IMG/VR virus record: IMGVR_UViG_3300049811_000692
Location: 1-64,000 of that record
Origin: a virus
DNA length: 64,000 nucleotides
Direction: 5' to 3' (one strand)
The position numbers were made by a program, and so were the translations under genes. The notes below the pieces were generated by a model. It had not been told where the DNA came from. It worked only from the letters and a program-made list of their open reading frames with translations, and searched no databases. Shown here one piece after another: positions 8,889 to 25,628 of the stretch (position 1 is its first letter; the number at the start of each line of letters is the position of its first letter).

Positions 8889-8931
8889 ATGGGGCTGGCC
8901 CGCCAGCCCCCGAGCGGTGCCGAGGAGACCA

Positions 8932-10809
8932 ATGAGCGACCAGGAGCTTTCGAGGCCGGGACCGCCAGGCGAGCCGCCGGGGACCCGCGCCGCTTCCATC
9001 CCCCGCTACCTCATCGATCGGGCCGCCCAAGGCCTGCGCGCGCTCATGCGCGGCCCCGAGCAGTTCTCGACCATCCGGGACAACGCCACCCCACCGCCGC
9101 CCACCAACCGGCCCGTCCAGCCCCCCGAAGTGCCCGCCAGCGCCACCGCCGCCTCGCCGGTCGAGGGCAGCGGCTACATGGGGCCCGGCGTCCCGCAGCG
9201 CCCCGCGATCGTCGAGTGGTCCGAGGTCGCCGGCCGCGCCTTCGACTACCAGCCCGGCATCAACCTCGACCTCAGGCCCCGCGGCACCGAAGGCATCACC
9301 TTCGAGATGCTGCGGAACCTGAGCCGCAACTACGACTTGCTCCGCCTCGCCATCGAGACCCGCAAGAACCAGCTCGCCAAGCTCGGCTGGTCCATCCTGC
9401 CCCGCCTCGACCCGGGCGAGCAGTTCCGCCGCCCAGCCGATGAGAGCTGCCGCGCCGTCGAGACGTGCCTGCGCCGCCCCGACGGGGTGAACGCCTGGCC
9501 CGAGTGGATCCGCATGATCGCCGAGGACAGCTTCGTCTGCGACGGCGTGGCCATCTTCCGGCGCCGCAACGCCGACGGGAAGCCCTACGCGCTCGAGGTC
9601 GTGGACCCGGGCACCATCAAGCTCCTCATCGACGTCACCGGCCGCCGCCCGCTGCCGCCGACGCCCGCCTACTCGCACGTCATCAAGGGCATGCCGCTCG
9701 CCCAGTACACCACGCGCGAGATGAGCTACTGGATCCGCAACCCCTCCTCGGATCGCGTGTACGGCTACGGCGAGGTCGAGCAGATCATCCGCACCGTGAT
9801 GATCGGCCTCGCCCGCATGGCCAAGCAGCTCGGGCACTACAACGGCTCGAACATCCCCGATGCCATGCTGCCCATGCCGCCTAACTGGAACCCGGCCCAG
9901 ATCGCCGAGTTCGAGCGGCACTTCCTGCAGATGATGCAGAACCCGGGGATGAAGCGGCGCGTCCACTTCATCCCGGGCGGCGTCGGCCAGCCGATCCTCA
10001 ACTCGACCGAGCAGACGCTCTTCGGGGGCTTCGACGAGTGGCTGGCGCGCATCGTCTGCTACGCCTTCTCGCTGCCGCCCTTCCCCTTCGTCCAGCAGAC
10101 GAACCGCGCCACCGCGCAAACCCAGTACGACGCCGCGCTCGAGGAGGGCCTCGCGCCCTTCCTCGCCAGCATCAAGGCGTTCATCGACCACGAGATCGCC
10201 GAGTTCTTCGGCTTCCCCGACCTCGAGCTGGTCTGGGACGACGTGCGCAAGCTCGACCCCGCCGAGCAGGCGAACCAGGACCAGGTGGACATGAAGTCCG
10301 GCCTGGCCTCGGTGGACGACGTGCGCGCCAAGCGCGGCCTCGACCCGGCCGGGCTCAGCGAGCCCCTGGTCTTCGGGGTGGGGCCGATGGGCTTCCTCTC
10401 CGTGAAGCAGATCCAGGCGATCCTCGAAGACGGCTCGAACATGCCGCCGTCCCCGGAGATGCTGGCGATGCAGCAGGCGGGGATGGGCGGGATGCCGGGC
10501 GATGACCCGCTGGCCGACGCGGACCCGGCCCTCCTCGAACAGCTTGGAATCGACCCGCAGGCCGCCGTGCAGGGCGCCGGGGTCGGGGGCGGCGCAGTGG
10601 GTCGGGGGACCGGCGCCGCCCCTTCTCTGGCCCAGATCGCGCGCACGGTGCAGACGCCGCCCGCGGTCAAGGCGCTCCTCGCCGGCATCGCCAGCCGAAC
10701 GCCCGCGGGGCCGGCCGAGGAGCCGCCCGAGAAGGCGGCGCCCATGACGGCCAAGAAGCCGCCCCCCAAGGTCGCGGCGAAGGAGGAGGAGGACGATGGC
10801 GGGGCGTGA
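8932..10809 (+). CDS. Phage portal protein
   Basis: FDYQPGIN, LRNLSRNYDLLRLAIETRK, PYALEVVDPGTIK, YGYGEVEQII, DEWLARIVCYAFS.PP, EEGLAP, VDDVRAKRGLDP; first gene of the head module. Confidence 0.9.
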   Translation: MSDQELSRPGPPGEPPGTRAASIPRYLIDRAAQGLRALMRGPEQFSTIRDNATPPPPTNRPVQPPEVPASATAASPVEGSGYMGPGVPQRPAIVEWSEVAGRAFDYQPGINLDLRPRGTEGITFEMLRNLSRNYDLLRLAIETRKNQLAKLGWSILPRLDPGEQFRRPADESCRAVETCLRRPDGVNAWPEWIRMIAEDSFVCDGVAIFRRRNADGKPYALEVVDPGTIKLLIDVTGRRPLPPTPAYSHVIKGMPLAQYTTREMSYWIRNPSSDRVYGYGEVEQIIRTVMIGLARMAKQLGHYNGSNIPDAMLPMPPNWNPAQIAEFERHFLQMMQNPGMKRRVHFIPGGVGQPILNSTEQTLFGGFDEWLARIVCYAFSLPPFPFVQQTNRATAQTQYDAALEEGLAPFLASIKAFIDHEIAEFFGFPDLELVWDDVRKLDPAEQANQDQVDMKSGLASVDDVRAKRGLDPAGLSEPLVFGVGPMGFLSVKQIQAILEDGSNMPPSPEMLAMQQAGMGGMPGDDPLADADPALLEQLGIDPQAAVQGAGVGGGAVGRGTGAAPSLAQIARTVQTPPAVKALLAGIASRTPAGPAEEPPEKAAPMTAKKPPPKVAAKEEEDDGGA

Positions 10810-12703
10810 AGACCGGCAGCCGGCCATCCCGGCCGCGCTGGGCGCGGGGGCAGGCGTCTATGCGGGCTGGAAGGGCGCGAAGGCCCTGAACGGCGTCCGC
10901 CGTGACGTGGTGGCGGGCAACATCAAGGCGGCCCGGCGCGGGACCGAGCAGCGGGCGGCGCGCATGGCGGCGAGCGGCCAGGGCGGGCAGGTGGCCGGCC
11001 TGCGAGCCAAGGTGCGCCAGGAGGCGTTCAAGATCACGGCGCAGGCGCAGCGCAGCGCCCCGAATGGTGGGCGGGTGCTTGGGACCGTCTCGCCGGCCGC
11101 GCTGCCGAAGCTCTCGGAGGCACCCGGGCGCGCGCTGGCGGCGCGCGTGCCGCGCCTGAGCCCCTGGGCCAAGGGGGCGACGAAGGTGGGCCTGGCGGGC
11201 GCGGCCGCAGGCTGGGCCGCGTCGAAGATGGGGTGGTTCGACAAGGCGGCGGGGGCCGCGGAGCTGCGCAAGGCCTGGTCGCTCGCCAGCTGGCTGGGCG
11301 GCTCGCGGCGCATGAAGCCGCCGCCAGCCCGGCGCTCGCTCTACGCGCCCGAAGACCCGGGCTACGCCGACACGCGCCTGGCGCCCAAGGCCGTGCAGCC
11401 AGCCGGCGCGCCGGCGCAGCGGTGGAAGAAGTTCAACCGCGTGGGGGGCGGCTCCTACTGGCGCGACAGCTGGCGGGGCGACCTGCAGGAGGGGCTGCGG
11501 CAGAGGGGGCTGATGAAGGAGGCGCCGCCAGCCTCCGAAGAGGAGCGGTGGGCTCGTATCGGCGCGGGGTCAGTGGGGGGCGCGGCAGCTGGCCTGGTGG
11601 GCGGAAGCCTCGGCGCGCTGGTCGGCGAGGGCGCGGGGCAGATCAGCGAGGCTAAGCTTCGCAGTCCGACGCTCACCAAGCGCTCCCCCGGCACGCCGCT
11701 CTCCGAGGAGGAGCGCCAGCAGCGCGTGGAGGCCGCCCGGGCGCGCTGGGCGAACCACATCCCCGACGCTGACCCCGAGCCGGCACCGGCCGCGGCCGCG
11801 GCACGGGCGAAGTGGCGCCCGCCCAGCCAGCGCATCAACCAGGTCAGCCGGAAGGAGTACGCGGCCCGCAACGCCGCGGCGAAGGAACGCTGGCGCGCCA
11901 TCCAGGAGGCGAAGTTCAACGACCGCGAGGCGCGCCGCGCGAAGCTCGCCGCCGGCGAGGAGGCGCCCCCCGACAAGGGGAAGGTGTACTTTGACCCCAC
12001 CACCCGCCCCGAGCAGCCGGCCGAGCCGCGCCCGCAGGGCCGGGGCTGGACCGGGGCACGCCTCGGTGTCGGCCGCGGCGTGAAGACCGCCACCTGGCCG
12101 GGCAGCCGGGCCTGGGACGTGCAGGACGGGAAGCTGGTCGCCTACGAGACGCCCGAGAAGGGCCCGGGCCGCACCTACCGCACCTGGAAGGTGACGCCCC
12201 TCAAGCCGAAGGACATGCCCGACGCCGAGTACATCGCGATCGGCCGCAAGGCGGTCGCGCAGATGGAGGGCTGGAAGGGGCCGATCTTCGAGGACATCGT
12301 CCGGACGGACAGCTTCCGGGACAAGCCCGTGATGCCGGCCGACCCCGACCCGCGGGTGGTCCGCATCGCCTGGAACCACGCGCGCCAGATGGCGCTGAAC
12401 AACGTGATGCTCCAGCGCGTCGAGGGAGACTTCTCCTTCAACCCGCGGGTGCGCGAGCAGCTGCGGGGCTACGAGGGTCTGGTGCGGGACCTGACCTACC
12501 GGCTGACCGGCCGGCTGCGGCACGAGACGCCCGAGACTTGGGCACGCTTCCGGGCCGAGTTCGGCCAGGAGAAGGCCGATGGGGCGGTGTACCTCAAGGA
12601 CACGAAGGGCGGCTTCAAGGCGGGCGAGAAGCGCAAGGCCGGGCAGCGCCACGCGGTCCTGGTGAAGCGGGCAGGGGGTGCCGATGCCGCGGCTTCTCGA
12701 TGA
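10796..12703 (+). CDS. Putative internal head cargo polyprotein 1 (cationic Gly/Ala-helix modules plus unknown globular domain)
   Basis: GGAGG RBS; modules separated by ELRK, GLMK and TLTK; leader LSEEERQQRVEAARARW at 11699-11749. Confidence 0.7.
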   Translation: MAGREDRQPAIPAALGAGAGVYAGWKGAKALNGVRRDVVAGNIKAARRGTEQRAARMAASGQGGQVAGLRAKVRQEAFKITAQAQRSAPNGGRVLGTVSPAALPKLSEAPGRALAARVPRLSPWAKGATKVGLAGAAAGWAASKMGWFDKAAGAAELRKAWSLASWLGGSRRMKPPPARRSLYAPEDPGYADTRLAPKAVQPAGAPAQRWKKFNRVGGGSYWRDSWRGDLQEGLRQRGLMKEAPPASEEERWARIGAGSVGGAAAGLVGGSLGALVGEGAGQISEAKLRSPTLTKRSPGTPLSEEERQQRVEAARARWANHIPDADPEPAPAAAAARAKWRPPSQRINQVSRKEYAARNAAAKERWRAIQEAKFNDREARRAKLAAGEEAPPDKGKVYFDPTTRPEQPAEPRPQGRGWTGARLGVGRGVKTATWPGSRAWDVQDGKLVAYETPEKGPGRTYRTWKVTPLKPKDMPDAEYIAIGRKAVAQMEGWKGPIFEDIVRTDSFRDKPVMPADPDPRVVRIAWNHARQMALNNVMLQRVEGDFSFNPRVREQLRGYEGLVRDLTYRLTGRLRHETPETWARFRAEFGQEKADGAVYLKDTKGGFKAGEKRKAGQRHAVLVKRAGGADAAASR

Positions 12704-12875
12704 GCGCCGCGCGCGGGCCGAGGCCATGTGGGGCACCTACCTCGCGCGGGTGATCGTAGGCGCGGTGGCGGGGGCGCTGGTGGTGTTCGGCCTGGGGGTG
12801 ACGATCGCCTACTGGCGGGCGCACGGGCGCTTCGGGAGCCAGGCCGACATCCTGAACTGGCTCTTCGGGCTGTGA
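12684..12875 (+). CDS. Small single-TM membrane protein
   Basis: VIVGAVAGALVVFGLGVTIAYW; fills the gap and overlaps the next GTG start. Confidence 0.6.
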   Translation: MPRLLDERRARAEAMWGTYLARVIVGAVAGALVVFGLGVTIAYWRAHGRFGSQADILNWLFGL

Positions 12876-15715
12876 GCGGGACGCTGACGGAGGCCGAGCG
12901 CCAGCAGCGCGTCGAGGCGGCGAAGGCCAGGTGGAGGAAGTGGCGCGAGCGCGGCGCCGCGGCCGTGGGTGCCGGGCTGGGGGCGTGGGGTGGCGCGGAA
13001 CTCGCGGGCCGGGCGGTCGAGATCGGCGCCCAGGCTGGTTTGGAAGGGGGGCGATCCCAGGCCAGCGCGGCCCTTGCCGTGGCCGAGCGGCGGGTGCGCC
13101 GTCATGCCCGCAAGGCGGGCCGGCAGATCGAGAACGCCGCCTACGAGTGGCCCATGGGGGCCTACTACCGGTTCAGCGGACGGGCGCAGCGCCTGGCCCA
13201 GAAGGATGCGGCGCGGCTCTCAGGCATCCACCCGAGCGCCACGCGCGCGACGCGCCGGCAGCCGCGACGGGAGCATAGCGAGGCCGACCTGGCGCGCCGG
13301 GCCGACATCTTGACCGGCCGAAGCCCCGAGCTGCCCTCGGGCCGCGACTATGCGCGGACGAGGGCGCGCCTCAAGGAGGTGGCGGCGCTCGAGGAGCTGG
13401 TGGCGCGCTGGCCGCAGCAGGCGACGGCCGAGGAGCTGCGGCGATTCCAGAGCGCGAAGGGGCCGAGCGACGCCCTGCATCGCGCTCGGCTGCGCGCGGC
13501 CGCGGCGCTCCCGAAGACCAAGCTCACCTTGGAGCGGACGGGCACCGGCATTCGGCCGGGGCGCTCCCCGACGCCGGCGCTCGAGGCGCGTCTGGCCGAT
13601 GCGCGCGCGAAGGCCGACAGCGCCACCGAGGTTCGGCTTCGGGCGGGAGAGCTCTACCGCAACCCGCCCGATCCGAAGCGCTGGAAGATCGCGGGCGAAG
13701 ATCGGCGGCCCTACCCGCAGCGCTCCCTGGGGCCGGCCGAGCAGAGGCTCTGGCAGGACCGCCCCTTCGAAGTCGGCGGGCCGCCGCCCAAGCAGCGGCG
13801 CACGCGCGCCTGGCCGACGCGGGCCGACTTCGAGACGCTGCGCGAGGAGGTGCGGGCCAGCGTGCGGCAGCGGCACGCGGCCTTCGCGAGCGCGGAGCGC
13901 GCCCGCGGCGCCGGGAAGGCCGAGGCGGCTCGCGGGGCCGGGGCGGCCACGGCAGCGCGGTGGCGACGCGCGGCCGGGAAGGCCAGGTCCGGCGCGGCGG
14001 CAGCCGGGGCCCTTGGTGGCGGCCTCCTGGCCTACGGCCTGGCCCGCGCCATGCGGCGCAAGGAGCCGGTGGAGAAGCTTGCCAAGGGGCTGACCGAGGC
14101 GCAGCGCCAGCAGCGCGTCGAGGCGGCCAAGGCGCGGTGGGCGAAAGCGAGGACCGCCACCGCCGCGCAGCGGGTGCGCGAGGCCAGGGCGCGAGGGGAG
14201 CGCCTGGTCTATCGCGGAGCGCCGACCCCCGATTGGCAGCCGACCCCACGGAAGTACGCGGGGATCTTCGTGACTCCGAGCAAGGGCTTCGCCCGAGACT
14301 ACGCCTCCCCGACCGCGGGAAGGGCCGGGTGGATCACGTCCTACGCCATGCGCAACAACCTCGACCTGATCGACCTGGGCGAGGCGGGCCGCGAGGTGAC
14401 GGCGCGAGAGCCAGACGCGCGCGGGAAGCGCTTCATTCGCCGGTCTCAGGCGCTCCTCGCCGCCGAGATCGAGCACGGCGACGCGGCCGCAAAGCGCAGG
14501 GCCATGCGCCGCGGCCTTCGCGGTGATGATGAGGTTCCCGAAAGCGCGCGGTACCGGGAGGGTGCGGCTTGGAGCAGCCACACGCTGGCCTTCCCGCACG
14601 ACGCCCACAACCTTCGCGGCCTGCGTGCCGACGGGACGCGCCTCGTCAATCTCGAGGCCGACGCGCCGTCCATCATGATCGGGGACGGCAAGCTCCTGCG
14701 TCCGCTCTACGCGCGCAGCGCTGGCTCCGACCGCAAGGTCATGCTCGCCAAGGCTGCCCCCGACGAGCCGGGCAAGTCCGCGCCCGAGCGGGTGGCCGCG
14801 CGCACCGAGAAGACGCTCGCCCGGCGCCTCGCCTCGCTCTTCCAGGCGTGGGGGGCCAAGCCCAACGACACCGGCCGCGCCGAGCAGGTCGAGGAGGCCA
14901 TCCGCGAGGCCGTCCGCAACGCCTTCGAGGACATGGGGGGCGTCATCGAACGCGAGGGCGGCCTGCAGGCGCCGCCGACCGAGCAGAACCCGACCATCGC
15001 CTTCAACTTCGACATGCGGACCCAGCGCGTCGAGCAGGGCCTCCGGGAGTACGCCTTCGGCCTGGTCCGCGCGATCAGCAACGACAGCCGCGAGGCGATC
15101 CGCACGGCGATGCTGCTCGGCGCCACCACCGGCGCCACCATCCCCGACCAGGCGCGCCTCATCCGGCAGAGCGTGGGCCTCTCGCCCGGCCAGGTGCAGT
15201 GGGTCCACTCCTTCGAGCGCCAGCTGCGCCGCCTCGATCCCAGGGCGCTCGACCGCGCGCTGCGGGACCGGCGCTTCGACCCCACCATCCGCCGCGCCAT
15301 CGAGACGGGAACGCCGCTGTCGGACGAGCAGGTGGCGAAGTACGTGGACGCCTACCGCCGCCGCACCCTGGCCTACCGGGCGACGACCATCGCGCGCACC
15401 GAGGGCATCCGGGCGACCAACATGGCGAGCGTCGCCCAGGCCCAGGCGATGATCGAGGCCGACCCGACCCTCGACGTCGAGAAGACCTGGATCACCGCCG
15501 GCGACGAGCGGGTGCGCTCGAGCCACCAGCGCCTCTCGGGACAGGTGGTGGTGGGGATGAACACGCCCTTCACGACCACGGGGGAGGACGGGCAGCCCGT
15601 CCAGATCCGCTGGCCGCACGACCCGCTCGCGCCGGCGAGCGAGACGGTGCAGTGCCGCTGCGTCCTGGGCCTGCGGATCATCCGCAAGCCCGAGGCTGGC
15701 ACGCCCCTCGCCTGA
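12872..15715 (+). CDS. MuF/SPP1 gp7-family minor head protein with N-terminal cargo modules including an ART-like domain
   Basis: C-terminal RATTIARTE...KTWITAGDERVRSSH...WPHDP...ETVQCRC (MuF); internal VYRG...GIFVT....ARDYA (ART-like). Confidence 0.85.
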   Translation: MSGTLTEAERQQRVEAAKARWRKWRERGAAAVGAGLGAWGGAELAGRAVEIGAQAGLEGGRSQASAALAVAERRVRRHARKAGRQIENAAYEWPMGAYYRFSGRAQRLAQKDAARLSGIHPSATRATRRQPRREHSEADLARRADILTGRSPELPSGRDYARTRARLKEVAALEELVARWPQQATAEELRRFQSAKGPSDALHRARLRAAAALPKTKLTLERTGTGIRPGRSPTPALEARLADARAKADSATEVRLRAGELYRNPPDPKRWKIAGEDRRPYPQRSLGPAEQRLWQDRPFEVGGPPPKQRRTRAWPTRADFETLREEVRASVRQRHAAFASAERARGAGKAEAARGAGAATAARWRRAAGKARSGAAAAGALGGGLLAYGLARAMRRKEPVEKLAKGLTEAQRQQRVEAAKARWAKARTATAAQRVREARARGERLVYRGAPTPDWQPTPRKYAGIFVTPSKGFARDYASPTAGRAGWITSYAMRNNLDLIDLGEAGREVTAREPDARGKRFIRRSQALLAAEIEHGDAAAKRRAMRRGLRGDDEVPESARYREGAAWSSHTLAFPHDAHNLRGLRADGTRLVNLEADAPSIMIGDGKLLRPLYARSAGSDRKVMLAKAAPDEPGKSAPERVAARTEKTLARRLASLFQAWGAKPNDTGRAEQVEEAIREAVRNAFEDMGGVIEREGGLQAPPTEQNPTIAFNFDMRTQRVEQGLREYAFGLVRAISNDSREAIRTAMLLGATTGATIPDQARLIRQSVGLSPGQVQWVHSFERQLRRLDPRALDRALRDRRFDPTIRRAIETGTPLSDEQVAKYVDAYRRRTLAYRATTIARTEGIRATNMASVAQAQAMIEADPTLDVEKTWITAGDERVRSSHQRLSGQVVVGMNTPFTTTGEDGQPVQIRWPHDPLAPASETVQCRCVLGLRIIRKPEAGTPLA

Positions 15716-15795
15716 GGTGACGGCAGGCGGTAGGTGGCCGGCGCGGCGAGGGGAAGATGCCCCGCGGCCCCGTCCCAATCAAGCGTGACGAGGGG

Positions 15796-15828
15796 CTTGC
15801 GCCGCCCCGGCACCATGCCGCCACGGTG
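15796..15828 (+). promoter_or_regulatory. Putative late promoter CTTGC-N16-GCCGCCACGGTG
   Basis: Intergenic, 23 nt before ATG 15852; member of the repeated motif family. Confidence 0.7.
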
Positions 15829-15851
15829 GAGGACCAGCCCGGAGCGCCTCC

Positions 15852-17564
15852 ATGAACTTCACCGACGACCACCTGGCCGCCATCCAGCAGGCGATCGCGT
15901 CGCTGCCGACGCCGCTGGATCAGAACCGCGCCCTGGTCGCGGCGACGCTCTACGCCCAGGAGGCCGACGCGGCCCTGGCGAAGGGCGAGCGGCCGCCCGA
16001 GGGTGACGCACTCCGCAAGGCGGTGAACGAGGCGGTCGAGGGGGCGCTGGCGAAGGCGGAGGACGGGGCGCCGAAGAAGCGGCGCTCGCTGGTCGGGCAG
16101 GTGGCGGTCGGCGCGGTGACCGGCGCGGCCGCGGGTGCGGCGGGCTCGACGGCCAAGAGGCTTGGGACGGCATACGGGCTTCCGGCGACGATGCGGGCCT
16201 CCACCCCGGGGCAGCGCCGCGGCGTCTCAGATCTCATCGTGACAACGCAGCTCACCTCTAGCCCGAAGCGCCATGAGCTGTGGCGGAAGGCCACGAAGAA
16301 GCTGGAAGCGGGCGGGGGAATGACGGGGCGGGAAGTGTTCACCATGCGCCACGGCGCGGCCAAGGTGATCGCGGCGCTCCCGTCTCGGCGCTCGGTGAAG
16401 TACGGCGCGGCCGCCGGCGCGGCGGCGGGCGCGGGCATCTACGTGGGCAAGCGGCTCTTCGGGGGCAGCAAGGCCGAGAAGGCGGCGGCGGGCGGGGCGC
16501 TGGCGAAGGGGGAGGACGGGGCGCCGAAGAAGCGGCGCTCGCTGGTCGGGCAAGTGGCGGTCGGCGCGGCGACCGGCGCGGCCGCGGGTGCGGCGGGCTC
16601 GACGGCCAAGCGGCTCGCGGTGTCGCAAGGCCTTCCGGCCATTTCGATGCGCGGTAGCTCCAGGGACGAGCGCCGCGCGCTGTCTTCGATACTCTCGGCA
16701 GGGCAAGTTCTGAGCAGCCCGCTTCGCCACAAGGTCTGGATGGCTAGCACCGAAGACCTTCTGGCACGCGGCCAGTACGAGGCGCGCGACAGGGTGGCAA
16801 ATGTCATCGCGGCCCTGCCGTCTCGGCGCTCGGTGAAGTACGGCGCGGCCGCCGGCGCGGCGGCGGGCGCGGGCATCTACGTGGGCAAGCGGATCTTCGG
16901 AGGGCGCAGCGCCGAAAAGGCGGCGGCGGGCGGGGCGCTGGCGAAGGCCCTCTCCTCCCTCCCGCTCGCCCAGCGCGAGCACGCCATCGACCTGATCGAG
17001 GCCGGGCGCGAGGAGACGCTGAAGAAGATGTTCCCGGGCGTCCTCGCCGCGGCGAAGGGCCTGTGGACGGCGGCGAACGTCGCCGGCACCGGCATGGCCG
17101 TCCGCGACCTCTGGCGCGCCGGAAGCGCGGCCGCGGGCCGCATGGCCGGCTCTGCCGCAGGCGCGGCGCGCGGCGCGGCCATGGGCGCCTCCCGCGCCGG
17201 GCGCGCGGGCTACGCCGGTATCCGGGCCGGCATGCGCGGCTCGCCCCGCGTGTACTCGGCCGCCAAGGGGAAGTGGGGCGCGCGCGGCTTCGACGCCGGC
17301 GCCAAGCTGCGTGGGGCGGGCAACTTCGCCATGGCCCACGGCGGGCGCGCGGCCTCCGAGGCGGCCGAGGGTGTGGTGAGCCGCTACGGCCCCCGCGCCA
17401 TGCGCGCCGGCCAGGCGGCTCTCTCGAACCGGGGCGTGCAGATCGGCGCGGCAGGCGTGGCCGCCGGCGGCGTGGGGTCGAGCATGGGCTACCAGTCGGG
17501 CCGCCAGGACGAGCGGAACTCCAACCCCTTCATCCGCAACCAGCAGCGCCGCAAGGCCGTCTGA
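15852..17564 (+). CDS. Putative head cargo polyprotein 2 with tandem duplicated modules
   Basis: Acidic leader with ALAK/ALRK sites, two homologous modules and a third Gly/Ala/Arg-rich module. Confidence 0.75.
   Translation: MNFTDDHLAAIQQAIASLPTPLDQNRALVAATLYAQEADAALAKGERPPEGDALRKAVNEAVEGALAKAEDGAPKKRRSLVGQVAVGAVTGAAAGAAGSTAKRLGTAYGLPATMRASTPGQRRGVSDLIVTTQLTSSPKRHELWRKATKKLEAGGGMTGREVFTMRHGAAKVIAALPSRRSVKYGAAAGAAAGAGIYVGKRLFGGSKAEKAAAGGALAKGEDGAPKKRRSLVGQVAVGAATGAAAGAAGSTAKRLAVSQGLPAISMRGSSRDERRALSSILSAGQVLSSPLRHKVWMASTEDLLARGQYEARDRVANVIAALPSRRSVKYGAAAGAAAGAGIYVGKRIFGGRSAEKAAAGGALAKALSSLPLAQREHAIDLIEAGREETLKKMFPGVLAAAKGLWTAANVAGTGMAVRDLWRAGSAAAGRMAGSAAGAARGAAMGASRAGRAGYAGIRAGMRGSPRVYSAAKGKWGARGFDAGAKLRGAGNFAMAHGGRAASEAAEGVVSRYGPRAMRAGQAALSNRGVQIGAAGVAAGGVGSSMGYQSGRQDERNSNPFIRNQQRRKAV
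16041..16947 (+). repeat. Tandem duplication with near-identical flanks and diverged cores
   Basis: 16041-16157 vs 16494-16610 (117 bp, 3 mismatches); 16380-16454 vs 16818-16892 (75 bp identical). Confidence 0.92.
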
Positions 17565-17576
17565 GGAGACGCGCAG

Positions 17577-18671
17577 ATGATCACCCTCCCCCTGGCGAAG
17601 GTCGATGTCGAGCGCCGCCTGATCATCGCCCGCGCCGCGGCCGAAGAGCCCGACCGCTCGGGCGAGGTCATGGACTGGGCGACGGCCAAGCCCGAGTTCG
17701 AGCGCTGGTCGCGCAGCTTCGAGCTGGCGACCTCCCACCTCGGCCCGGACGCCATGTCCAAGGGCAACATCCGCCTCCAGCACGACCCGAAGCGCGTGGT
17801 GGGCAAGGTGGTGGAGCTGAAGCTCGACGACGACGCTCGCGCGGCCGACGTGGTCTGCAAGGTGGTGGACGATCAGGCGTGGCGGCTCTGCCAGGAGGGC
17901 TGCATCACCGGCCTCTCGATCGGCGGGTCCTACGGCAACAAGTGGACCGACGCGGCGACGGGCCTGAAGAAGTACACGCCGAAGATCACCGAGATCTCGC
18001 TGGTGGACAACCCGTGCATCCCGAGTGCCCGGATCGTCGAGCTGGTGAAGGCCGACGGCGCAGTGGAGGAGCTCCACCTGACCGGGCGCCCGCGCTCCTT
18101 CGACGAGGTGCTGAGCGAGACCCCGCCCGACTTCGAGGCGGCGCTGGCGAAGGTCGCGGCCGAGACGCCGGCCGACTTCGAGATGGCGCTGGCGAAGCGG
18201 ACGAAGGGGGCGCCGCTCTCGGAAAAGGAGCGGGAGCAGCGGCGCAACGCCGCGCGGCGGAAATCGGTGGTCTCAGGCGCGGTCGCCGGCACCGTGTACG
18301 GCGCGCTGGGAGGCCTCTTCGGCGCCAAGGCCGCGGCGCGGGCGCTGGAAGAGAAGATCGAGCGACGCCTCGCAGTCCCCCGGCGCGCCTCCGAGAAGGC
18401 GACCGACGGCATCACGATCGCGCAGCGCAAGATTGAGCAATACGACGACGGCATTCGCAGCACGCCCCACGGGAAGACCGTGGAGAACCTCAAGATCGCC
18501 GCGCTCCGGGCTGCCCGCGCAGAGGCCGACGCTAAGGCCACGAAGATTAGGCGCGTCCTACGGCCTGTGCAGTTCGTGGGGCGGCACGGCACCAAGATCG
18601 GCGCGGCGGTCGGCGCGGCGGCCGGCGCGGGTTTGGGTTACGCGGCGCACCGCCGGAAGGCACAGAAGTGA
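17577..18671 (+). CDS. Prohead maturation protease (HK97 gp4/XkdF-like) fused to a C-terminal cargo module
   Basis: PLAKVD..RRL...A..E.PDRSGE, NIRLQH (His), G.ITGLSIGG (Ser), EISLVDNPC.P; C-terminal ~160 aa cationic module. Confidence 0.88.
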   Translation: MITLPLAKVDVERRLIIARAAAEEPDRSGEVMDWATAKPEFERWSRSFELATSHLGPDAMSKGNIRLQHDPKRVVGKVVELKLDDDARAADVVCKVVDDQAWRLCQEGCITGLSIGGSYGNKWTDAATGLKKYTPKITEISLVDNPCIPSARIVELVKADGAVEELHLTGRPRSFDEVLSETPPDFEAALAKVAAETPADFEMALAKRTKGAPLSEKEREQRRNAARRKSVVSGAVAGTVYGALGGLFGAKAAARALEEKIERRLAVPRRASEKATDGITIAQRKIEQYDDGIRSTPHGKTVENLKIAALRAARAEADAKATKIRRVLRPVQFVGRHGTKIGAAVGAAAGAGLGYAAHRRKAQK

Positions 18672-19327
18672 TGCGCCTGGCCAAGCGCCAGTCCGGCGCC
18701 CCCCTCTCCGAGGCCGAGCGCCAGCAGCGCCGCGAGGCGGCCCGCGCGCGCTGGGCGGAAGCGGCCCGGGTGGGCGGCGGCGCCCTGGCGGCGGGTGCGC
18801 TGGGGTGGAGCGCGCCGAGCGCCCTGCTCGCGCCCCGCTCCCCCACCAAGGCCGAGGCCCGCAAGGTCTGGAAGACGGAGATGCGCGGCGTCGCCGGCGC
18901 CCTGAAGCGCGAAGGGGCCGACATCCATGAGCGCGCGGCCATCATGCGCGGCGTCGGCCGGTCCGTGATGCGGGACGTCATGGAAAGGCTGCGCCCGGTC
19001 GGGAACCGGCGCGCGCAGGCCGCGGCCGCGGTCGCCACAGGCCTGCTCGGCGGCGCCCTGGCGGCGCGTGGCGCGCGCCTCACCCAGTCGCGCCCCGCCC
19101 CCGACGCCCCAGGCGCCGTCGCCCATCAGCGCCGCGAGCGCGAGAACAAGGTCGCCCAGGCGTCCATGACCGGGAGCCTGACCGGCCTCGGCATCTACGG
19201 GGGCGTGCGGTCCGCGCTGGCCGGCATGGGCCGCCGCCCGCTCGCTCCCCATCCGGCCTTCGTCGCCGCCGCGGCCACCGGCGTCGGCGTCCTCAACGGC
19301 CTGCGCGTTGCCCGCAAGGAGTCCTGA
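18671..19327 (+). CDS. Putative head cargo protein 3 (four Gly/Ala hydrophobic helices)
   Basis: Starts MRLAK-RQSGAPLSEAERQQRREAARARW. Confidence 0.7.
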   Translation: MRLAKRQSGAPLSEAERQQRREAARARWAEAARVGGGALAAGALGWSAPSALLAPRSPTKAEARKVWKTEMRGVAGALKREGADIHERAAIMRGVGRSVMRDVMERLRPVGNRRAQAAAAVATGLLGGALAARGARLTQSRPAPDAPGAVAHQRRERENKVAQASMTGSLTGLGIYGGVRSALAGMGRRPLAPHPAFVAAAATGVGVLNGLRVARKES

Positions 19328-22300
19328 TGCCCAAGCCGCGCTTCACGCCGGACCTCATCACCGAGCTGCGCCACCTCGTCATCGCCCACAACGAGGCGGG
19401 GCATGAGCGCGTTCGGCTCGAGGAGCTGAAGAAGGCCTACGCCTCGAACCATCGCGGGCGGAACGGCCATGAGAGCGCCATGGGCGGCGTGCGCAAGCTC
19501 CTGCTCAGGAAGGCCGACGAGTACCCGCGCGACCAGAAGGGGCGCTTCACCTTCGGCCAGCGCAGGGCGTGGGGCGATGCTGCCTCGCCCGAGCAGCACC
19601 AGCAGCTCCGCGAGGACAACGCCGGCTACGCAGCCTTCCAGAACGCGGTGATCCCGGAGACGCGGGGCACGCAGCTGCTTCCCTCGCTCCTGGGCGCGGC
19701 GGGCATTGTCGAGGGCGCGGTGCGCGGTGCGACCACCGGGCCGACCTGGCGCCGCAACGCGCCGAGCAAGACGATCCGCTTCATGACGGCGCCGCTGTAC
19801 GGGCTGCCGTTCGAGAGCGTGCAGCGCGTCCGGCGCGGCATCAACAGCGGCTTCGATGCCGTCGCGACGGCGGGGGAGGCGGTCACGCTGGCGCCGTCGC
19901 GCTGGCTGGTCCGCCGCGGCGCGGCTGAGAGGGCGAAGATCAAGGCGCAGCCCGCGCCCACGACGCTGGCCGGGAAGATCGGCCGCCAGGAGAAGCTGCT
20001 GCGCACCGGCGCCCAGCACCGGGTCGCCGCCGGCGCCGCGGGGGCGCTGCTCTACGGCGTGCCGGCGGCGATGCTCTATGCGGCGGGCGGGCGGGTGGTC
20101 GGCCCCTACTACGACGCGATCAAGGGCGGGCGCACGATCGAGAAGATGCACGGCGGCGACCCGACGGCGCGGGCGCTGCTGCAGAAGGCCATGGGGCCGC
20201 AGATGCTCTTCGCGAAGGCGGGGCAGATCGCGCAGCGCTTCGCCAGCGCGGCGCAGGCGGGGGCGCGCGCGGCGCGGGCCTCGGGCATTCGCCGCGGCGC
20301 GGCCGCGCTCATGCCGCAGCGCCCCTTCATCCGGGCCGAGCGCCTGACGGCGCAGCTGCGCGGCCGGGTCGGCAAGCTCGGGGTGCGGCGCCCCGGCCTC
20401 TACGCGGCAGGCGGCGCGGCGCTCGGCGCAGCGGGCGCGGCCGGCGCGGCCTACGGCGGCACGAAGCTCGCCGAGCGCGTGTACTACCGCGACAAGGAGG
20501 GGCAGTTCACCTCCAAGGACAAGGCGGTCATCACGGGGGCGGCGGGCGCGGCCGGCGCGCTGATCGGCGCGGCGCTAGCCGGGCGCGCGGCCGGGCGCCT
20601 CAATGCCAAGGCCCGCGAGGCGGTGATGCGCCGCTTCAAGGGCGTCTCGACGGCCTCGGGAATGATCGACGGCGAGGGGCGCAAGATCACGGTCGCCACG
20701 AAGGCGCGGCTGGACAGCGCCACGGCCGCCCTGAAGGCGCGCGGCAAGCCGCTGGCGGCCGACGAAGCCGACGCGGCGGCGCTGGCGAACACCTACGCCG
20801 ACGCGATGGTGACGCGCCTCTCCGACCCGAAGACCCCGCGCAACGCCATCGCCGAGCGCGTGGAGCGCATGGCCGGAAGCGCCCACGTCCAGCGGAAGTT
20901 CACCTCGCCGTCCTACCAGGGGACGGTCAGCACCATCCGCGACGCGGCGAAGAAGCGCCTGGATGCCCGGATCGCCCAGCTCCAGGAGCCCTGGGAGAGC
21001 TGGTACCGCAGCCAGCTGGTCGAGGCAGGGCGCGCGCGGGCGCAGCAGCGCCTTCGCACCACGGCGGCCAAGGTGAAGGGGGGCGGCTTCTGGGATGGGG
21101 CGCCGAACGCGGGCGCGCTGCGCGCGGAGACGCTGAAGAAGTTCCCGGCGCGGGACGGCGCCTACACCCTCGACCAGGTGGCCGACTTCCTCGAGCAGAA
21201 GGGGGCCAAGGTCCAGGCCGCGGCGCTCAGGGCCGACGCCTCGGCCCTAGCAACGGCGACCAAGGACTTCGACGAGCAGCTGGGGCGCGCGATCGGCGCG
21301 CGGGACAAGGCGCGCGCGCAGGCCGACCGCCTGACGCGGGCCGCGGCCAAGGCCGAGGAGAAGTTCAAGGCCGCGCAGACCGCCTCGCTCGACGTGCCGC
21401 GCGGCGAGAAAGTGCCGGCGCCGAGGCTCGAGGCGAAGGCGCTGGGCGACGAGGTGTGGGGCGAGGTCACGCAGGTGATCGGCAACCCCGACGCATCGGC
21501 GCCGGCGAAGTCGGTGACGTTGAACCCCACGATCGTCGATGCGCTCAAGAACGCGGCACAGACCTCCAGCGCCAAGGCGGCCGCGGCCGAGGCTGCCCTG
21601 GCGCGGCCGGCCATCGGGGAGACGGCGGGCGATCACGCGAGGCGCATCCGCAGCGCGCTCGGGGACGACTTCAAGGAGGGCCTGCCGCGGCCGCGCAACC
21701 CATTCGGCTCGGGCGCGGACGGCTTCCTGCCGATGCGCCCGACCCCGGAGGACGTGACGAAGGAGATCGCGGCCGAGACGGCGCGCGACATCGCGAAGCT
21801 CCACGACGAGATCGTGGCCGAGGCGGTGAAGGTGGGCGAGAAGGCGGGACGCGCGGCGCGCGCGATGCCGGCGGCGATGCGGCTGCTCGAGGCGCGGCCG
21901 AGCGCGGCGCGGGCGGCGGTCGGCGCCGTGGCGGGGGCGGTGGGGAGCCGCACGACGGCGGCGCGGCGCGAGCTGCGCAACATCGTGGCCCAGATGCGTC
22001 GCGACGTGGACGTGGACCTGGCGGGGCGGCCGCAGAAGATCCTCGACGCGGCCGAGCGCGCGGGCGCGAAGGTGGCCGACGTGTTCGCGGGGAAGAAGGG
22101 CGCGGACGGGAAGCGCGCGGGCGGCGTGGGGCGCTGGCTGTGGCAGCGCAAGGGCCTCATCGCGCTCAGCCCGGTGGCGGGCGCGGTCGGCCTCGACCTG
22201 GGCTCGGACGGGAAGATCAATCTCGACTGGGCGCGGATGAAGGCCGCGGCGCAGGACCCGAAGCAGGCGGCGCTGACCGCGCTGACGGACACCCACAAGA

Positions 22301-24186
22301 AGGGCGGGGCCTACTTCCGCCTGATGAACGCGGCCACTGCCGACGAGGCGGTGATCACGGGCGTCACCATGAAGACGAAGGACGGGCGGCATCTCTTCGT
22401 GAGCGGCGTGGTCGAGCAGACGGGCAAGCCGAACGTCTCGATCACGCCGGGCTCGCCGGTCGAAGACGTGGAGAAGCGCTTCCGGAAGGAGGGCGGCGGG
22501 GGCCAGGGGAACCAGGACCAGAGCCGGCGCCTGGGCAACGCCGACGTCCTGAAGCGCGCCGAGGACGCGGCCAACAAGCTCGCCGGCAACCTCAAGCAGG
22601 AGGACGTTGGGGGCGAGAAGTTCCGACACCTCAACCTCTCGGGCCTCTCGGGGGGGCAGAAGGACGAGGCCGAGAAGGCAGCGAGCGCGCTGAAGGGCGA
22701 CCTCAACAACGCCTCGGCGAAGTTCGCGAGCGGCCAGCCCAACGCCGAGCAGACCTACGGGCTCCTTGGCTCGGTGCTGTCCGGCCCCGGGCGCCTGCTG
22801 TCCGCGCAGGAGAAGGTGGACTTCGCCCTCAAGGCCTTCGGGGCCAAGGGCAAGGAGGCGCGCGACGGGCTGGGCGGCAACGCCACGGCGCAGTCGGTGA
22901 ACGACGCCATCGTCAAGCTGGTGCGCGAGGCCCCGAACCCGGGGAACGACGGCGACGCGACGCGCCTGCGCCGGGCGGCGCGCCTGCTCGGGCAGCACCT
23001 CAAGACGCAGGTGCCGCTCTCCAACTACGAGGAGATCGACGCGGCGATCAGCGCGAAGCCCCGCTCGGGCGGGGGCGGCGGGCAGCCGCGCCAGGAGGGG
23101 CAGCGCCAGGGCGAGCCGCGCGCGGAGCGGGCCGCGGCCGCGCCAGAGCCCGCCCAGGCGCAGCGCTCGGGCGCCGCCCCCGAGCTGCGCGAGGAGCAGC
23201 GGCTCGATGTCGGGCCAGGCCGCAAGTACTCGGTCCTCTACCCGGCCAAGAACCCGGATCGCTGGTCGGACGACGACTGGATCAAGGTCACCGCCCGGGA
23301 GATCGAGGTCCAGGCGCGCGAGATCCTCAACGACGCTGCGACGCCGCGGGGCCAGAAGTGGGAGCAGCTGGCCAACACGGCGGACAACAACCTGCGCGCC
23401 TCGGTGGCCGGGCTGTGGTCGGCCTACCGGGACCTCATCAACCGCAACTACCCCGACGCCTCGGAGCGGGACCAGCGGCGTGCGTTGCAGCTCTACGTGA
23501 TGCAGCTCGTCGGGGAGCAGGCGGGCGGGGTGGAGTTCGAGCCGCTGCGATTCCGCCCCGTCGAAAAGGCGACCCGCGCCGGGACGCTCCGCAAGGACGC
23601 GGGGGGCGCGCTGCGCCGCCCCTGGGACGAGGCGAAGATCCGGCGCAACCCGGGCGGCAGCGACCAGGGCGGCGAGTTCGCCTCCAAGGGCGGCGCGGCG
23701 TCGCATGCGGGCGCGGGCGCGAAGCTGCCGGGCAAGGCAGAGAAGGAGGAGCGGGGCTTCTTCGAGCCGGTGCGGTTCGGCGCCACGGTCGGTGGCGTGC
23801 TGGGCGGGCAGGCGGCCTGGGAGCTGATCAGCCGCTACGCCCCCAAGGTGAAGGGCGGCCTGTCGGCGAAGTCGGGCCGATTCGTGGTGACGATGCTGGC
23901 CTCGATGGCGGGCGGCGCCGCGGCCAGCAAGGCGGGCGAGCGCCTGGGCGCGATGACCTACGAGCGCCGCGGCCAGCGTGCGCCGACGCCCTACGAGGAG
24001 CCCGAGCGCCCGGGCGGCGAGGAGGCGGCGCGGGCGGCCGGCGCGATGATCGGCTCCTTCGCGGGCGCGGCGGCGCGCTCGGTCCCGGGCGGCGTCCTGC
24101 TGGGCGGCGCCGGTCAGCTGGGCGGTGAGGAGCTGATGGCGGCAGCCTACCGGGTCGCGAAGAACCGCTTCGGGATGTTCGCGTGA
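19327..24186 (+). CDS. Large (1619 aa) putative internal virion/ejection polyprotein
   Basis: Long ORF with strong codon bias between protease and scaffold; three R..(.)G[RQE]F motifs, Gly-zipper helices, L-x-K linkers. Confidence 0.75.
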   Translation: MPKPRFTPDLITELRHLVIAHNEAGHERVRLEELKKAYASNHRGRNGHESAMGGVRKLLLRKADEYPRDQKGRFTFGQRRAWGDAASPEQHQQLREDNAGYAAFQNAVIPETRGTQLLPSLLGAAGIVEGAVRGATTGPTWRRNAPSKTIRFMTAPLYGLPFESVQRVRRGINSGFDAVATAGEAVTLAPSRWLVRRGAAERAKIKAQPAPTTLAGKIGRQEKLLRTGAQHRVAAGAAGALLYGVPAAMLYAAGGRVVGPYYDAIKGGRTIEKMHGGDPTARALLQKAMGPQMLFAKAGQIAQRFASAAQAGARAARASGIRRGAAALMPQRPFIRAERLTAQLRGRVGKLGVRRPGLYAAGGAALGAAGAAGAAYGGTKLAERVYYRDKEGQFTSKDKAVITGAAGAAGALIGAALAGRAAGRLNAKAREAVMRRFKGVSTASGMIDGEGRKITVATKARLDSATAALKARGKPLAADEADAAALANTYADAMVTRLSDPKTPRNAIAERVERMAGSAHVQRKFTSPSYQGTVSTIRDAAKKRLDARIAQLQEPWESWYRSQLVEAGRARAQQRLRTTAAKVKGGGFWDGAPNAGALRAETLKKFPARDGAYTLDQVADFLEQKGAKVQAAALRADASALATATKDFDEQLGRAIGARDKARAQADRLTRAAAKAEEKFKAAQTASLDVPRGEKVPAPRLEAKALGDEVWGEVTQVIGNPDASAPAKSVTLNPTIVDALKNAAQTSSAKAAAAEAALARPAIGETAGDHARRIRSALGDDFKEGLPRPRNPFGSGADGFLPMRPTPEDVTKEIAAETARDIAKLHDEIVAEAVKVGEKAGRAARAMPAAMRLLEARPSAARAAVGAVAGAVGSRTTAARRELRNIVAQMRRDVDVDLAGRPQKILDAAERAGAKVADVFAGKKGADGKRAGGVGRWLWQRKGLIALSPVAGAVGLDLGSDGKINLDWARMKAAAQDPKQAALTALTDTHKKGGAYFRLMNAATADEAVITGVTMKTKDGRHLFVSGVVEQTGKPNVSITPGSPVEDVEKRFRKEGGGGQGNQDQSRRLGNADVLKRAEDAANKLAGNLKQEDVGGEKFRHLNLSGLSGGQKDEAEKAASALKGDLNNASAKFASGQPNAEQTYGLLGSVLSGPGRLLSAQEKVDFALKAFGAKGKEARDGLGGNATAQSVNDAIVKLVREAPNPGNDGDATRLRRAARLLGQHLKTQVPLSNYEEIDAAISAKPRSGGGGGQPRQEGQRQGEPRAERAAAAPEPAQAQRSGAAPELREEQRLDVGPGRKYSVLYPAKNPDRWSDDDWIKVTAREIEVQAREILNDAATPRGQKWEQLANTADNNLRASVAGLWSAYRDLINRNYPDASERDQRRALQLYVMQLVGEQAGGVEFEPLRFRPVEKATRAGTLRKDAGGALRRPWDEAKIRRNPGGSDQGGEFASKGGAASHAGAGAKLPGKAEKEERGFFEPVRFGATVGGVLGGQAAWELISRYAPKVKGGLSAKSGRFVVTMLASMAGGAAASKAGERLGAMTYERRGQRAPTPYEEPERPGGEEAARAAGAMIGSFAGAAARSVPGGVLLGGAGQLGGEELMAAAYRVAKNRFGMFA

Positions 24187-24272
24187 CCTTCGTCCAGTCC
24201 GGCGGGGCCTTCTCTGGGCTGACCGCCACCGACCTGGCGGTGCCGCGCGAGCGATGGCGGCGGCTGAGGGCA

Positions 24273-24305
24273 CTTGCGCGAAAGCCCCGTCGTGCCGCCA
24301 CGGTG
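24273..24305 (+). promoter_or_regulatory. Putative late promoter CTTGC-N16-GCCGCCACGGTG
   Basis: Upstream of the scaffold ATG at 24354. Confidence 0.7.
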
Positions 24306-24353
24306 AAGGAGCAACTCCTGAAGAGCGGGCCCGAGGCCCTGGAGAGGATCGAG

Positions 24354-25628
24354 ATGACCCAGTTCGAGCAGATGGTCGAGGCGCTCAAGACCAGCGTCAC
24401 CGAGATCGCCGCGGCCAACCGCGCGGATCGGGACAGCGCGCTGAACAAGAGCGTGGACCAGTTCGCGGAGCGCGTGGGCGGGCTCTTCGAGGAGGGCACC
24501 CAGCAGCTCCGCAAGAGCGCCCTGGTGCAGCCCAGCGAAGCCGAGGCGGTCGCCTATCTGGGGCGGCTGGTGTTCAACTTGGCCGACGGCATCAAGGCGG
24601 TGGAGGGCGGCCAGACGATCGCCATCGAGGGCGGGAGCCCGCCGTCGGAGGGGACGATGGAGCTGCTGAAGGCGGCGACGGACCTCGCCTATGCCGGTGT
24701 GCAGCTGCTCGCGGCCGAGCAGGCGGCGCCCATCGAGCGCGAGGAGGAGGCCGAGGGCCTCGGTCTGGCGAAGGTGGCGTTCGAGGGGGGCGAAGTGCTG
24801 GTGAAGCACGCGCTCTCCGAGGACGGCATGTCGTTCCTGGGCGATCCCGAGGTCGCAACCGTCGAGGGGATCGAGGCCGCGGCCCACGCGCTGATGACGC
24901 TCGGCGTGGACGTCTCCCCGCTCCTCAAGGCGGCCGGCGAGGACGAGGAGGAGTTCGAGGGCGAGGAGGGCGAGCAGCCCGAGGGCGAGGAGGGCGAGGA
25001 GCCGGAGGCGCCCGAGGGCGAGGAGGGCGAGGAGGGCGAGGAGGGCGAGGGCCCGGAGGGTGACGATCCGCTGACCAGCCTCGCGCAGCTCGGCATCGCG
25101 ACGCTCACCACCGCGGCCTCGCTGCGGGAGGCGGCCGAGGCCGAGGGCGCGACGGCCGAGGAGCTGGCCGAGGTCGATCGGATCGCGCAGCTGGGCGCGG
25201 CCATTGCGGTGACGGCCGACAAGATCCTCGGCAGCGCCGGCCAGGAGGAGGGCGCGGAGGGCGAGGAGCCGGCTGAGAGCGAGGAGGAGATGGCGCTCTC
25301 GGCGCGCATCCGCGACCTCGCCAAGCAGGCGCGCACCTACGTGCTCTCGACGACGCCGAAGGACGAGCTGGCGAAGGCGGCGGGCGGCGAGCTCGTGAAG
25401 GCGGCTGCGCCGGAGGCCGAGAAGCCCGAGCTGAAGAAGGAGGCGCCGGCGCCCGAGCCGAAGGCGCCGGTCCTGAAGACGGTGGCGGTCGAGAAGGCGG
25501 CGGACGGCAACCCGCTCGGCGGCGAGGAGACCGAGGCCCAGAAGGTCGAGCGGCTGGCGAAGATGGGGCCCGAGGCGGCGCGCCTCGAGCTCATCAAGGA
25601 GGCCATGCGCCACCAGGTTCCCGTGTAG
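24354..25628 (+). CDS. Capsid scaffolding protein
   Basis: Very acidic, helical, EGE repeats, directly before the MCP; GGAGAGG RBS before ATG 24354; many L-x-K sites. Confidence 0.75.
   Translation: MTQFEQMVEALKTSVTEIAAANRADRDSALNKSVDQFAERVGGLFEEGTQQLRKSALVQPSEAEAVAYLGRLVFNLADGIKAVEGGQTIAIEGGSPPSEGTMELLKAATDLAYAGVQLLAAEQAAPIEREEEAEGLGLAKVAFEGGEVLVKHALSEDGMSFLGDPEVATVEGIEAAAHALMTLGVDVSPLLKAAGEDEEEFEGEEGEQPEGEEGEEPEAPEGEEGEEGEEGEGPEGDDPLTSLAQLGIATLTTAASLREAAEAEGATAEELAEVDRIAQLGAAIAVTADKILGSAGQEEGAEGEEPAESEEEMALSARIRDLAKQARTYVLSTTPKDELAKAAGGELVKAAAPEAEKPELKKEAPAPEPKAPVLKTVAVEKAADGNPLGGEETEAQKVERLAKMGPEAARLELIKEAMRHQVPV

Follow-up and report, generated by a model that had tools for sequence, protein, structure and literature searches.

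Internal cargo loading and ordering in HK97-like siphophages and in MuF polyvalent proteins are largely unexplained, and sequence-defined signals are available only for T4 and P1. In T4, the capsid targeting sequence (CTS) of IPIII, Alt and other internal proteins is a short peptide common to unrelated head proteins and tied to a prohead-protease site; its carriers are packaged and injected (PMC5694885, PMC9024508). In P1, the N-terminal 30-residue signal of DarB suffices for capsid localisation of a reporter (PMC9024508). Among the head proteins of the giant phages SPN3US and phiKZ, many ejection proteins are cut by the prohead protease at a simple tripeptide, and their propeptides are thought to target the prohead (PMC5694885). 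As described by Iyer et al. (2017), MuF-linked polyvalent or polymorphic proteins combine a MuF domain with varied enzyme domains and are encoded beside portal and head genes (PMC5512222). Here we analyzed a 17-residue motif repeated in the head module of a virus of 105,428 bp and ~72% GC (IMG/VR record IMGVR_UViG_3300049811_000692, hereafter G000), the first 64 kb of which (64,000 nucleotides) constitute the window. The motif is a predicted helix, generally preceded by a putative protease site, and both were examined in this phage, in related phages and in public protein collections.

The distribution of the motif in G000 was established with a six-frame regular expression and a hidden Markov model (HMM) built from five copies. 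The whole record contains exactly five copies, with domain E-values from 2e-8 to 5e-7, the next best match having an E-value of ~1. All are on the + strand, where an earlier reading made from the letters alone (the sequence-only reading) had placed them, and all are in head-module genes: one in gp635, two in the MuF polyprotein, one in the prohead protease and one in gp219 (Table 1). Copy 4, in the protease, is a variant ending in RRKS and not in RARW. The restriction to head or virion genes, on which that reading depended, was observed for 5/5 copies here and for 3/3 copies in the prophage head module of a Falsiroseomonas genome (see below). The upstream contexts are also as claimed: LTK-RSPGTP (11672-11698), LAK-G (14078-14089), LAK-RTKGAP (18189-18215) and LAK-RQSGAP (18677-18703), the L-x-K tripeptide preceding the motif by 1 or 6 residues. 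The remaining copy, at 12884, had been assigned to a protein start, and this start is real: the G+C content at third codon positions (GC3) of the MuF frame is 0.50 before the GTG at 12872 and 0.90 after it. The preceding open reading frame (ORF; 12678-12875, GC3 0.95) ends in a GTGA overlap at this start, which leaves M-S-G-T ahead of the motif, the latter lying three residues after the Met. A public protein collection includes the same 947-residue MuF form (P0014).

Codons were said to vary between copies, and this was borne out: an identical residue is encoded by the same codon in 59% of copy pairs, vs 60% expected from codon usage, and the longest nucleotide run common to any two copies is at most 25 nt. 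Synonymous sites are thus randomised, which indicates that the motif is conserved at the protein level, that the copies are old and that the peptide is under selection. Recent duplication as the origin of the copies was set aside on the same codon comparison. The domains downstream had been described as unrelated; indeed every pairwise BLASTP comparison among the five following segments gave E > 0.04.

Three further IMG/VR records carrying the motif were found by back-translated core patterns: a 103-kb provirus with 3 copies (G001), a complete 68-kb genome with terminal repeats, 60% GC and 4 copies (G002), and a 93-kb record with 5 copies (G003). Using core-only patterns in the four phages, 17/17 copies obey a position rule: 3 lie 2-3 residues after Met (MSGT-, MSQ-, MTQ-) and the other 14 lie 1-8 residues after a hydrophobic-x-K site. 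The portal, protease and capsid protein of G001 and G003 are 43-60% identical to those of G000. G002 has only the MuF domain and the motif in common with G000: the families are different for its capsid protein (phrog_1005), its portal (phrog_113) and its protease (S78_2), and the motif is N-terminal to the protease domain in G002 and C-terminal to it in G000. The phrog_3517 MuF domain is common to all four phages. The two-copy protein P0009 of G002 (L042:13760-15109, - strand) is encoded after the capsid and head-completion genes, right before the tail genes, whereas the position in the other phages is portal-adjacent.

An HMM listing of the domains that follow the motif across phage genomes had been proposed in the sequence-only reading. 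At E<=1e-3, an exhaustive profile search of 1.84 billion representatives yielded 134 cluster representatives; 42 proteins came from a word-indexed search. The union of both searches comprises 149 carriers, and 186 copies were counted on 147 of them. They are distributed as follows: 18 copies are directly at the protein start, 45 have a site in the first 15 residues, another 89 are internal and have one at most 12 residues upstream, and 34 have no site, many of these being behind a Gly/Ala-rich stretch. The claim that every copy becomes an N-terminus therefore stands only in part: copies are coupled to L-x-K or to a start codon, but ~18% of the 186 lack an upstream L-x-K and 13 are at the extreme C-terminus, after a Gly/Ala-rich stretch. 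A hydrophobic-x-K is present at most 12 residues upstream of 134/168 non-initial copies, vs 9.3% at random positions, a figure inflated because the search profile took in upstream columns; the 17/17 of the four phages is the cleaner figure.

Carriers hold up to 3 copies each. With the motif masked, they form 34 unlinked sequence groups, i.e. at least 34 groups without detectable similarity outside the motif. The named sources point to hosts among the Acetobacteraceae (Rhodovarius, Pseudoroseomonas, Acidiphilium and Falsiroseomonas). Cultured hosts of motif-bearing prophages include Rhodovarius crocodyli, whose protein P0006 is identical to the G001 provirus protein, Falsiroseomonas sp. CW058 and Pseudoroseomonas globiformis. 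The five-copy alignment led to a 5.2-Mb Falsiroseomonas genome, in which the significant copies (3/3) cluster at a single prophage head module, none more than 9 kb from it. There, the unit made of copy 3 and its following domain, which is internal after LAK in G000, opens its own gene as M-S-G-motif (40% identity, 97 residues). Cut site and start codon are thus interchangeable in front of the same unit. A family-level genome survey, with 25 candidates scored per genome, found the motif in at least 3 of 301 genomes. The motif is absent from 22 loci found through their protease (L002-L023) and from Brevundimonas phage Polewnik, which are distant relatives with a simpler head module. A tblastn search with two copies against 50,697 deposited phage genomes found none, which is weak evidence as the low-complexity filter may mask the query. 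Proteins with a C-terminal motif include P0020, P0039 and P0048; P0020 has no relative in the viral contigs searched.

The consensus of the wider family is L-A-K↓R-T-P-G-x-P-L-S-E-A-E-x-x-Q-R-R-E-A-A-[KR]-A-R-W-A, where the arrow marks the putative cut. The full element is composed of L-x-K↓R-x-P-G-x-P followed by the helix LSEAExxQRRxAA[KR]ARW. Its geometry is strongly constrained: among the 134 site-bearing copies, the spacing from K to the L of the helix is exactly 6 residues in 97 cases, and P1' is Arg in 90. The motif is helical in an AF2 model of gp219 (H14-36, pLDDT 65-77), with L-S/T-E-x-E as the capping box (N-cap) of a 17-18-residue helix. Q7, R8 and A11 are invariant. The conserved residues (L0, A3, E4, Q7, R8, A11, A12, A14, R15, W16) make up a broad Ala-rich stripe with Glu and Arg flanks; conservation covers more than half of the circumference of the helix. 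The net charge is ~+2, with conserved acidic positions at E2, E4 and E/D10. The invariant residues and the Ala stripe suggest, from sequence, a close helix packing rather than merely a charged surface, and the pattern fits packing on another helix or groove better than a DNA- or lipid-binding surface.

The helix is often associated with a Gly/Ala-rich "glycine zipper". Such a stretch occurs within 40 residues downstream of 89/186 copies (48%) vs 12.7% at random positions; it begins 0-1 residue past the Trp in 62 copies and lies just upstream of the motif in another 25. Pfam glycine-zipper models match it weakly. Over the motif itself, Pfam gave no match at E<=10 except one at chance level, the best match among PDB sequences has an E-value of 0.99, and the ESM Atlas returned generic helix matches only. 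A literature search found no description of the motif in the papers searched. A Tat signal (S/T-R-R-x-F-L-K, hydrophobic region, A-x-A) was considered and rejected: the second Arg is Val in 19% of copies (3/5 here), A-A stands in place of F-L, and 52% of copies have no hydrophobic stretch.

We infer that L-x-K is a prohead-protease cut site. The module that encodes the motif carriers also encodes an S78 protease (PF04586 in G000, S78_2 in G002). HK97 gp5 reads T-F-N-K↓S-L-G-S at its known maturation site, where the cut falls after K103, and the hydrophobic-x-K pattern agrees with it. In G000, G001 and G003, L-x-K is also conserved at three places: ahead of the MuF domain, close to the C-terminus of the scaffold and at the N-terminus of the capsid protein. 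The site right before the MuF domain reads L-[AS]-K↓A-A-P (14744-14752 in the window, with equivalents in G001 and G003); if this cut is real, the mature MuF domain would be parted from all motif-bearing pieces. The protease-scaffold fusion of Polewnik has several L-A-K sites. As L-x-K is upstream of the helix, typically by 6 residues, cleavage would leave the helix on the mature fragment.

The functional categories of the carriers were then considered. They comprise prohead proteases, small head proteins and MuF head proteins to which enzyme cargo is fused. Pfam identified Phage_Mu_F in 54 of the 149 carriers and S78 or S78_2 protease in 3; the other tallies are InPase 9, intein 7, Sigma70 5, AAA_33 5 and Zeta toxin 2, and ferritin, HopA1 and DUF6496 domains were also found. 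P0010, P0012, P0016 and P0033 associate MuF with InPase, Sigma70 r2/r4, AAA_33/Zeta toxin and intein domains. In the metagenomic MuF polyproteins P0010 and P0016, sigma-70 regions 2 and 4 and InPase are located in N-terminal modules, with motif copies between them; this sigma factor would be packaged and presumably injected. A second leader-like motif, [FW]-D-P-x-x-H-P-R-x-x-x-G-[RE]-F, follows a hydrophobic-x-K in 4/4 cases (P0084, P0097, P0112, P0136) and is also present in gp1619 (window ~19500). P0059, which is related to gp219, has a further domain at its N-terminus, framed by two motif copies; by eye, the H-x-H...S-x-x-D signature of this domain looks JAB/MPN-like. P0100 and P0145, which are borderline matches, have tandem copies in which the motif ends in EAGRKGG; this end resembles the KGG stress-protein repeat, and a relationship is possible.

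The head module of G000 is entirely on the + strand of the window, in the order portal, gp635, small ORF, MuF, gp570, protease, gp219, gp1619, scaffold-like protein and capsid protein (Table 1). Pfam and PHROG matches were looked for in gp635 and none was found. Its C-terminal domain (12113-12700) recurs in at least 18 other motif-bearing proteins. It is modelled by AF2 with pLDDT 83 and pTM 0.78; a Foldseek comparison with the PDB gave no match at E<=0.001 and no convincing fold, and a PI3-kinase catalytic fold was rejected (best VIA-align Z 5.1, under the noise level of the tool). The 65-residue ORF encodes a short basic helix ending in Trp (LLDERRARAEAMW) and then a Gly-rich helix that is strongly hydrophobic; the ORF product resembles the motif-plus-zipper unit and seems to be a shorter relative of it. 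The MuF polyprotein is composed, in order, of copy 2, a Gly zipper, ~390 residues, LAK, copy 3, an ART-like region, LAK↓AAP and the MuF domain: the extra domains are all N-terminal of the MuF domain, the only one that Pfam recognises. Each repeat of gp570 opens with LAK-GEDGAP-KKRR, the last part being a basic stretch, followed by a Gly zipper. Here the cut-site linker is kept without the helix, which suggests that the two are separable. In the protease, LAK sites join the S78 domain to a C-terminal module that opens with copy 4. Searched on its own, gp219 has no homologue of comparable length in the word-indexed protein collection. Among deposited phages, Polewnik and Strzyga, both of Brevundimonas, are the nearest. 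The capsid protein is 41% identical to its Polewnik homologue, and a further match is the protein annotated as major capsid protein in Arthrobacter phage Mufasa8. The head module of Polewnik is far simpler, with portal, protease-scaffold fusion and capsid protein.

Table 1. Head-module genes and element copies in the window (positions are those of the window).
Feature	Positions	Strand	Remarks
Portal protein, head module start	8917..10809	+	PF04860, E 5e-16
gp635, portal-adjacent head protein, 635 aa	10796..12703	+	Gly/Ala-rich N-terminal half, element copy 1, C-terminal domain ~170 aa
Element copy 1, gp635	11672..11749	+	LTK 11672-11680, linker RSPGTP, helix 11699-11749
Small overlapping ORF, 65 aa, one strongly hydrophobic helix	12678..12875	+	GC3 0.95; stop overlaps MuF start (GTGA)
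MuF polyprotein, 947 aa from GTG 12872	12872..15715	+	PF04233 E 9e-11, phrog_3517 E 2e-60, both in C-terminal third
Element copy 2, MuF N-terminus	12872..12934	+	M-S-G-T, helix 12884-12934, then Gly zipper
Element copy 3, MuF internal	14078..14140	+	LAK 14078-14086, G, helix 14090-14140
gp570, 570 aa, two internal repeats	15852..17564	+	Repeats 67% identical; no motif helix
Prohead serine protease, S78 in residues 1 to ~175	17577..18671	+	PF04586 E 2e-5; phrog_9427
Element copy 4, protease	18189..18266	+	LAK, RTKGAP, helix 18216-18266, then Gly zipper
gp219, small all-helical head protein, 219 aa	18668..19327	+	Start GTG 18668 or ATG 18671; overlaps protease stop
Element copy 5, gp219	18677..18754	+	LAK at residues 4-6, RQSGAP, helix 18704-18754, then Gly zipper
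gp1619, giant head protein, 1619 aa, without motif	19327..24186	+	Context
Acidic scaffolding-like protein	24183..25628	+	Four LAK and three other L-x-K sites, motif after none
Major capsid protein	25854..27383	+	phrog_13692; LIK at residues 12-14

We tentatively favour the reading in which the helix is a shared docking or assembly helix that organises the internal head (ejection) proteins and is exposed by the HK97-type prohead protease. To the observed element, family, position rules and genomic context, this reading adds a cleavage, a docking and a partner, as follows. In internal head proteins, the element would act as a "cut-and-expose" module of two parts, namely a prohead-protease site (hydrophobic-x-Lys then Arg) in a Pro/Gly linker and, starting six residues on, the helix. 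Carriers would enter the prohead as precursors, be they MuF polyproteins carrying enzyme cargo, small stand-alone proteins or the protease itself. The protease would cut after Lys, so that each released piece starts with the same helix, while pieces encoded by separate genes would start with it directly after Met. The helix would then provide a common protein-protein docking or bundling surface, whose partner would be either a shared receptor at the portal/MuF vertex or, on other carriers, the same helix. Through this contact the cargo would be kept in an ordered assembly inside the head, to be retained and subsequently ejected. A bolder version, rather unlikely in our judgement, makes the helix a general transferable address tag of an undescribed cargo system. 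MuF at the portal would display the helix, tagged proteins (enzymes, sigma factor, protease and small membrane-active proteins) would bundle via the Ala stripe, and the ordered assembly would be ejected first; the N-terminal Arg left by the cut could also set the lifetime of injected proteins via the bacterial N-degron pathway.

Several observations weigh against the docking helix. The capsid proteins that accompany the motif belong to two unrelated families and the portals to two, and the protease of G002 differs as well, so that a receptor on one particular shell or portal fold is unlikely; the candidate partners left would be the phrog_3517 MuF domain, the protease and homotypic bundling. 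MuF polyproteins already have a portal-binding MuF domain, and a separate targeting tag looks redundant there. The proteases of G001 and G003 lack the motif, which is thus not needed for protease incorporation. The site-less and C-terminal copies, and the inflation of the wide-set site statistics, count on the same side. Hydrophobic-x-K accounts for 0.18 of the Lys residues in head proteins and in the remaining proteome alike; as the bulk frequency is not raised, only the positional coupling and the conserved sites support L-x-K as a cut site. Finally, L-x-K-R is kept in 45 copies where just 2-8 residues would be removed, and the linker could therefore belong to the recognition unit, not only to the cut site.

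This last observation is also what a protease-docking element would explain. The linker and the helix past the scissile bond would in this case form an exosite for the prohead protease, ensuring fast and ordered cleavage. The fixed spacing of 6 residues and the frequent P1' Arg are consistent with it, as is L-x-K-R-x-P-G-x-P at extreme N-termini, and the protease itself bears the element in G000 and G002. We nevertheless consider it quite unlikely, since 18 copies are right after Met without a site and the 34 site-less copies include the 13 C-terminal ones. Moreover, L-x-K sites occur without the helix in the scaffold, in gp570, in the capsid protein and before the MuF domain, and gp570 even keeps LAK-xxxGAP. 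The association with glycine zippers could point to another function: the basic helix ending in Trp would form, with the zipper, an N-terminal membrane-insertion unit of ejected proteins. This juxtamembrane anchor would place them in the host envelope, e.g. building or guarding a DNA conduit. Basic residues and Trp are typical of membrane interfaces, and the enrichment of zippers next to the helix, downstream or just upstream, together with the weak Pfam zipper matches, speaks for the anchor. Half of the copies, however, have no such stretch, and soluble enzyme domains directly follow some of them (the P-loop kinase of P0012, the sigma-70 regions of P0010, the ART-like region behind copy 3). 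Conservation is strongest at Q and Ala and not at bulky hydrophobic residues, and it extends over more than half of the helix circumference. We regard the anchor as rather improbable.

Binding to nucleic acid had been among the options of the sequence-only reading, in the form of DNA tethering. An Arg-rich helix with a Trp at its end is in the style of arginine-rich peptides, and internal head proteins of other phages are basic; the helix would bind packaged DNA and the proteins would travel along with it. The composition argues against simple DNA binding: the net charge is low, three acidic residues are conserved, Q7 and A11 are invariant along with R8, and there is no match to any nucleic-acid-binding family. 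A tether is very unlikely on these grounds. A last explanation is situated at the DNA level, where the junction sequence would serve the exchange of cargo cassettes and the peptide would be functionless. The element is indeed found where modules meet, and the shuffling of modules between phages is evident. The randomised synonymous sites, with codon sharing at the expected level and short shared runs, and the conservation of the peptide between records of 60% and 73% GC make such a recombination linker extremely improbable, and it was set aside.

The element is a compact, strongly conserved and sequence-searchable handle that marks the module borders of cargo polyproteins. It predicts mature N-termini and allows the cargo of a whole phage group to be listed, including a sigma factor, kinases, pyrophosphatase-like and ART-like domains. 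Should it suffice for encapsidation, it would make a second-generation protein-delivery tag, one that remains on the cargo, and a direct route to the early-infection role of an injected sigma factor or kinase.

Encapsulin cargo-loading peptides, which are short and terminal, bring diverse cargo into a shell of the HK97 fold; they are usually C-terminal and bind the shell protein directly. Their consensus is unrelated to the present one, and the occurrence of our motif with two capsid protein families makes a shell receptor doubtful. The carriers themselves are of the MuF-linked polyvalent kind, with MuF, several unrelated effector domains, and portal, protease and capsid genes adjacent. The passages of Iyer et al. 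found by a term search discuss other peptidase domains, and contain neither a conserved leader helix nor processing by the phage's own HK97-type protease (PMC5512222). SPN3US and phiKZ resemble G000 in having internal head proteins with a simple protease motif. Their propeptides are removed, are long (~100 residues or more), and their paralogues share just short identical N-termini, whereas here a 17-residue helix would be retained and is found in at least 34 groups. P1 DarB has in common with our carriers an N-terminal signal on a large injected cargo protein, and DarB-like PHROG models also match the InPase domain of motif carriers. The DarB signal concerns one protein, without a tie to a protease site or a described family-wide motif; its function is demonstrated in P1. 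The closest parallel is the T4 CTS, an analogy already drawn in the sequence-only reading. The likeness is only a functional one: a short peptide shared by unrelated internal head proteins is coupled to a prohead-protease site, a putative one in the present case. The topology is different, as the T4 signal stands before the cut (L/I-x-E) and is removed (PMC5694885), whereas the helix here stands after the cut (L-x-K) and would be retained. The CTS is at the extreme N-terminus of the precursor; only 1/5 copies in the window and 18/186 in the family are at a start, 89/186 being internal. Unlike the CTS, the element is also found inside polyproteins, in several copies, and the protease is of the S78/HK97-type family. 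It may thus work like the CTS without being a member of that kind, from which it is set apart by position, by its predicted retention and by protease family.

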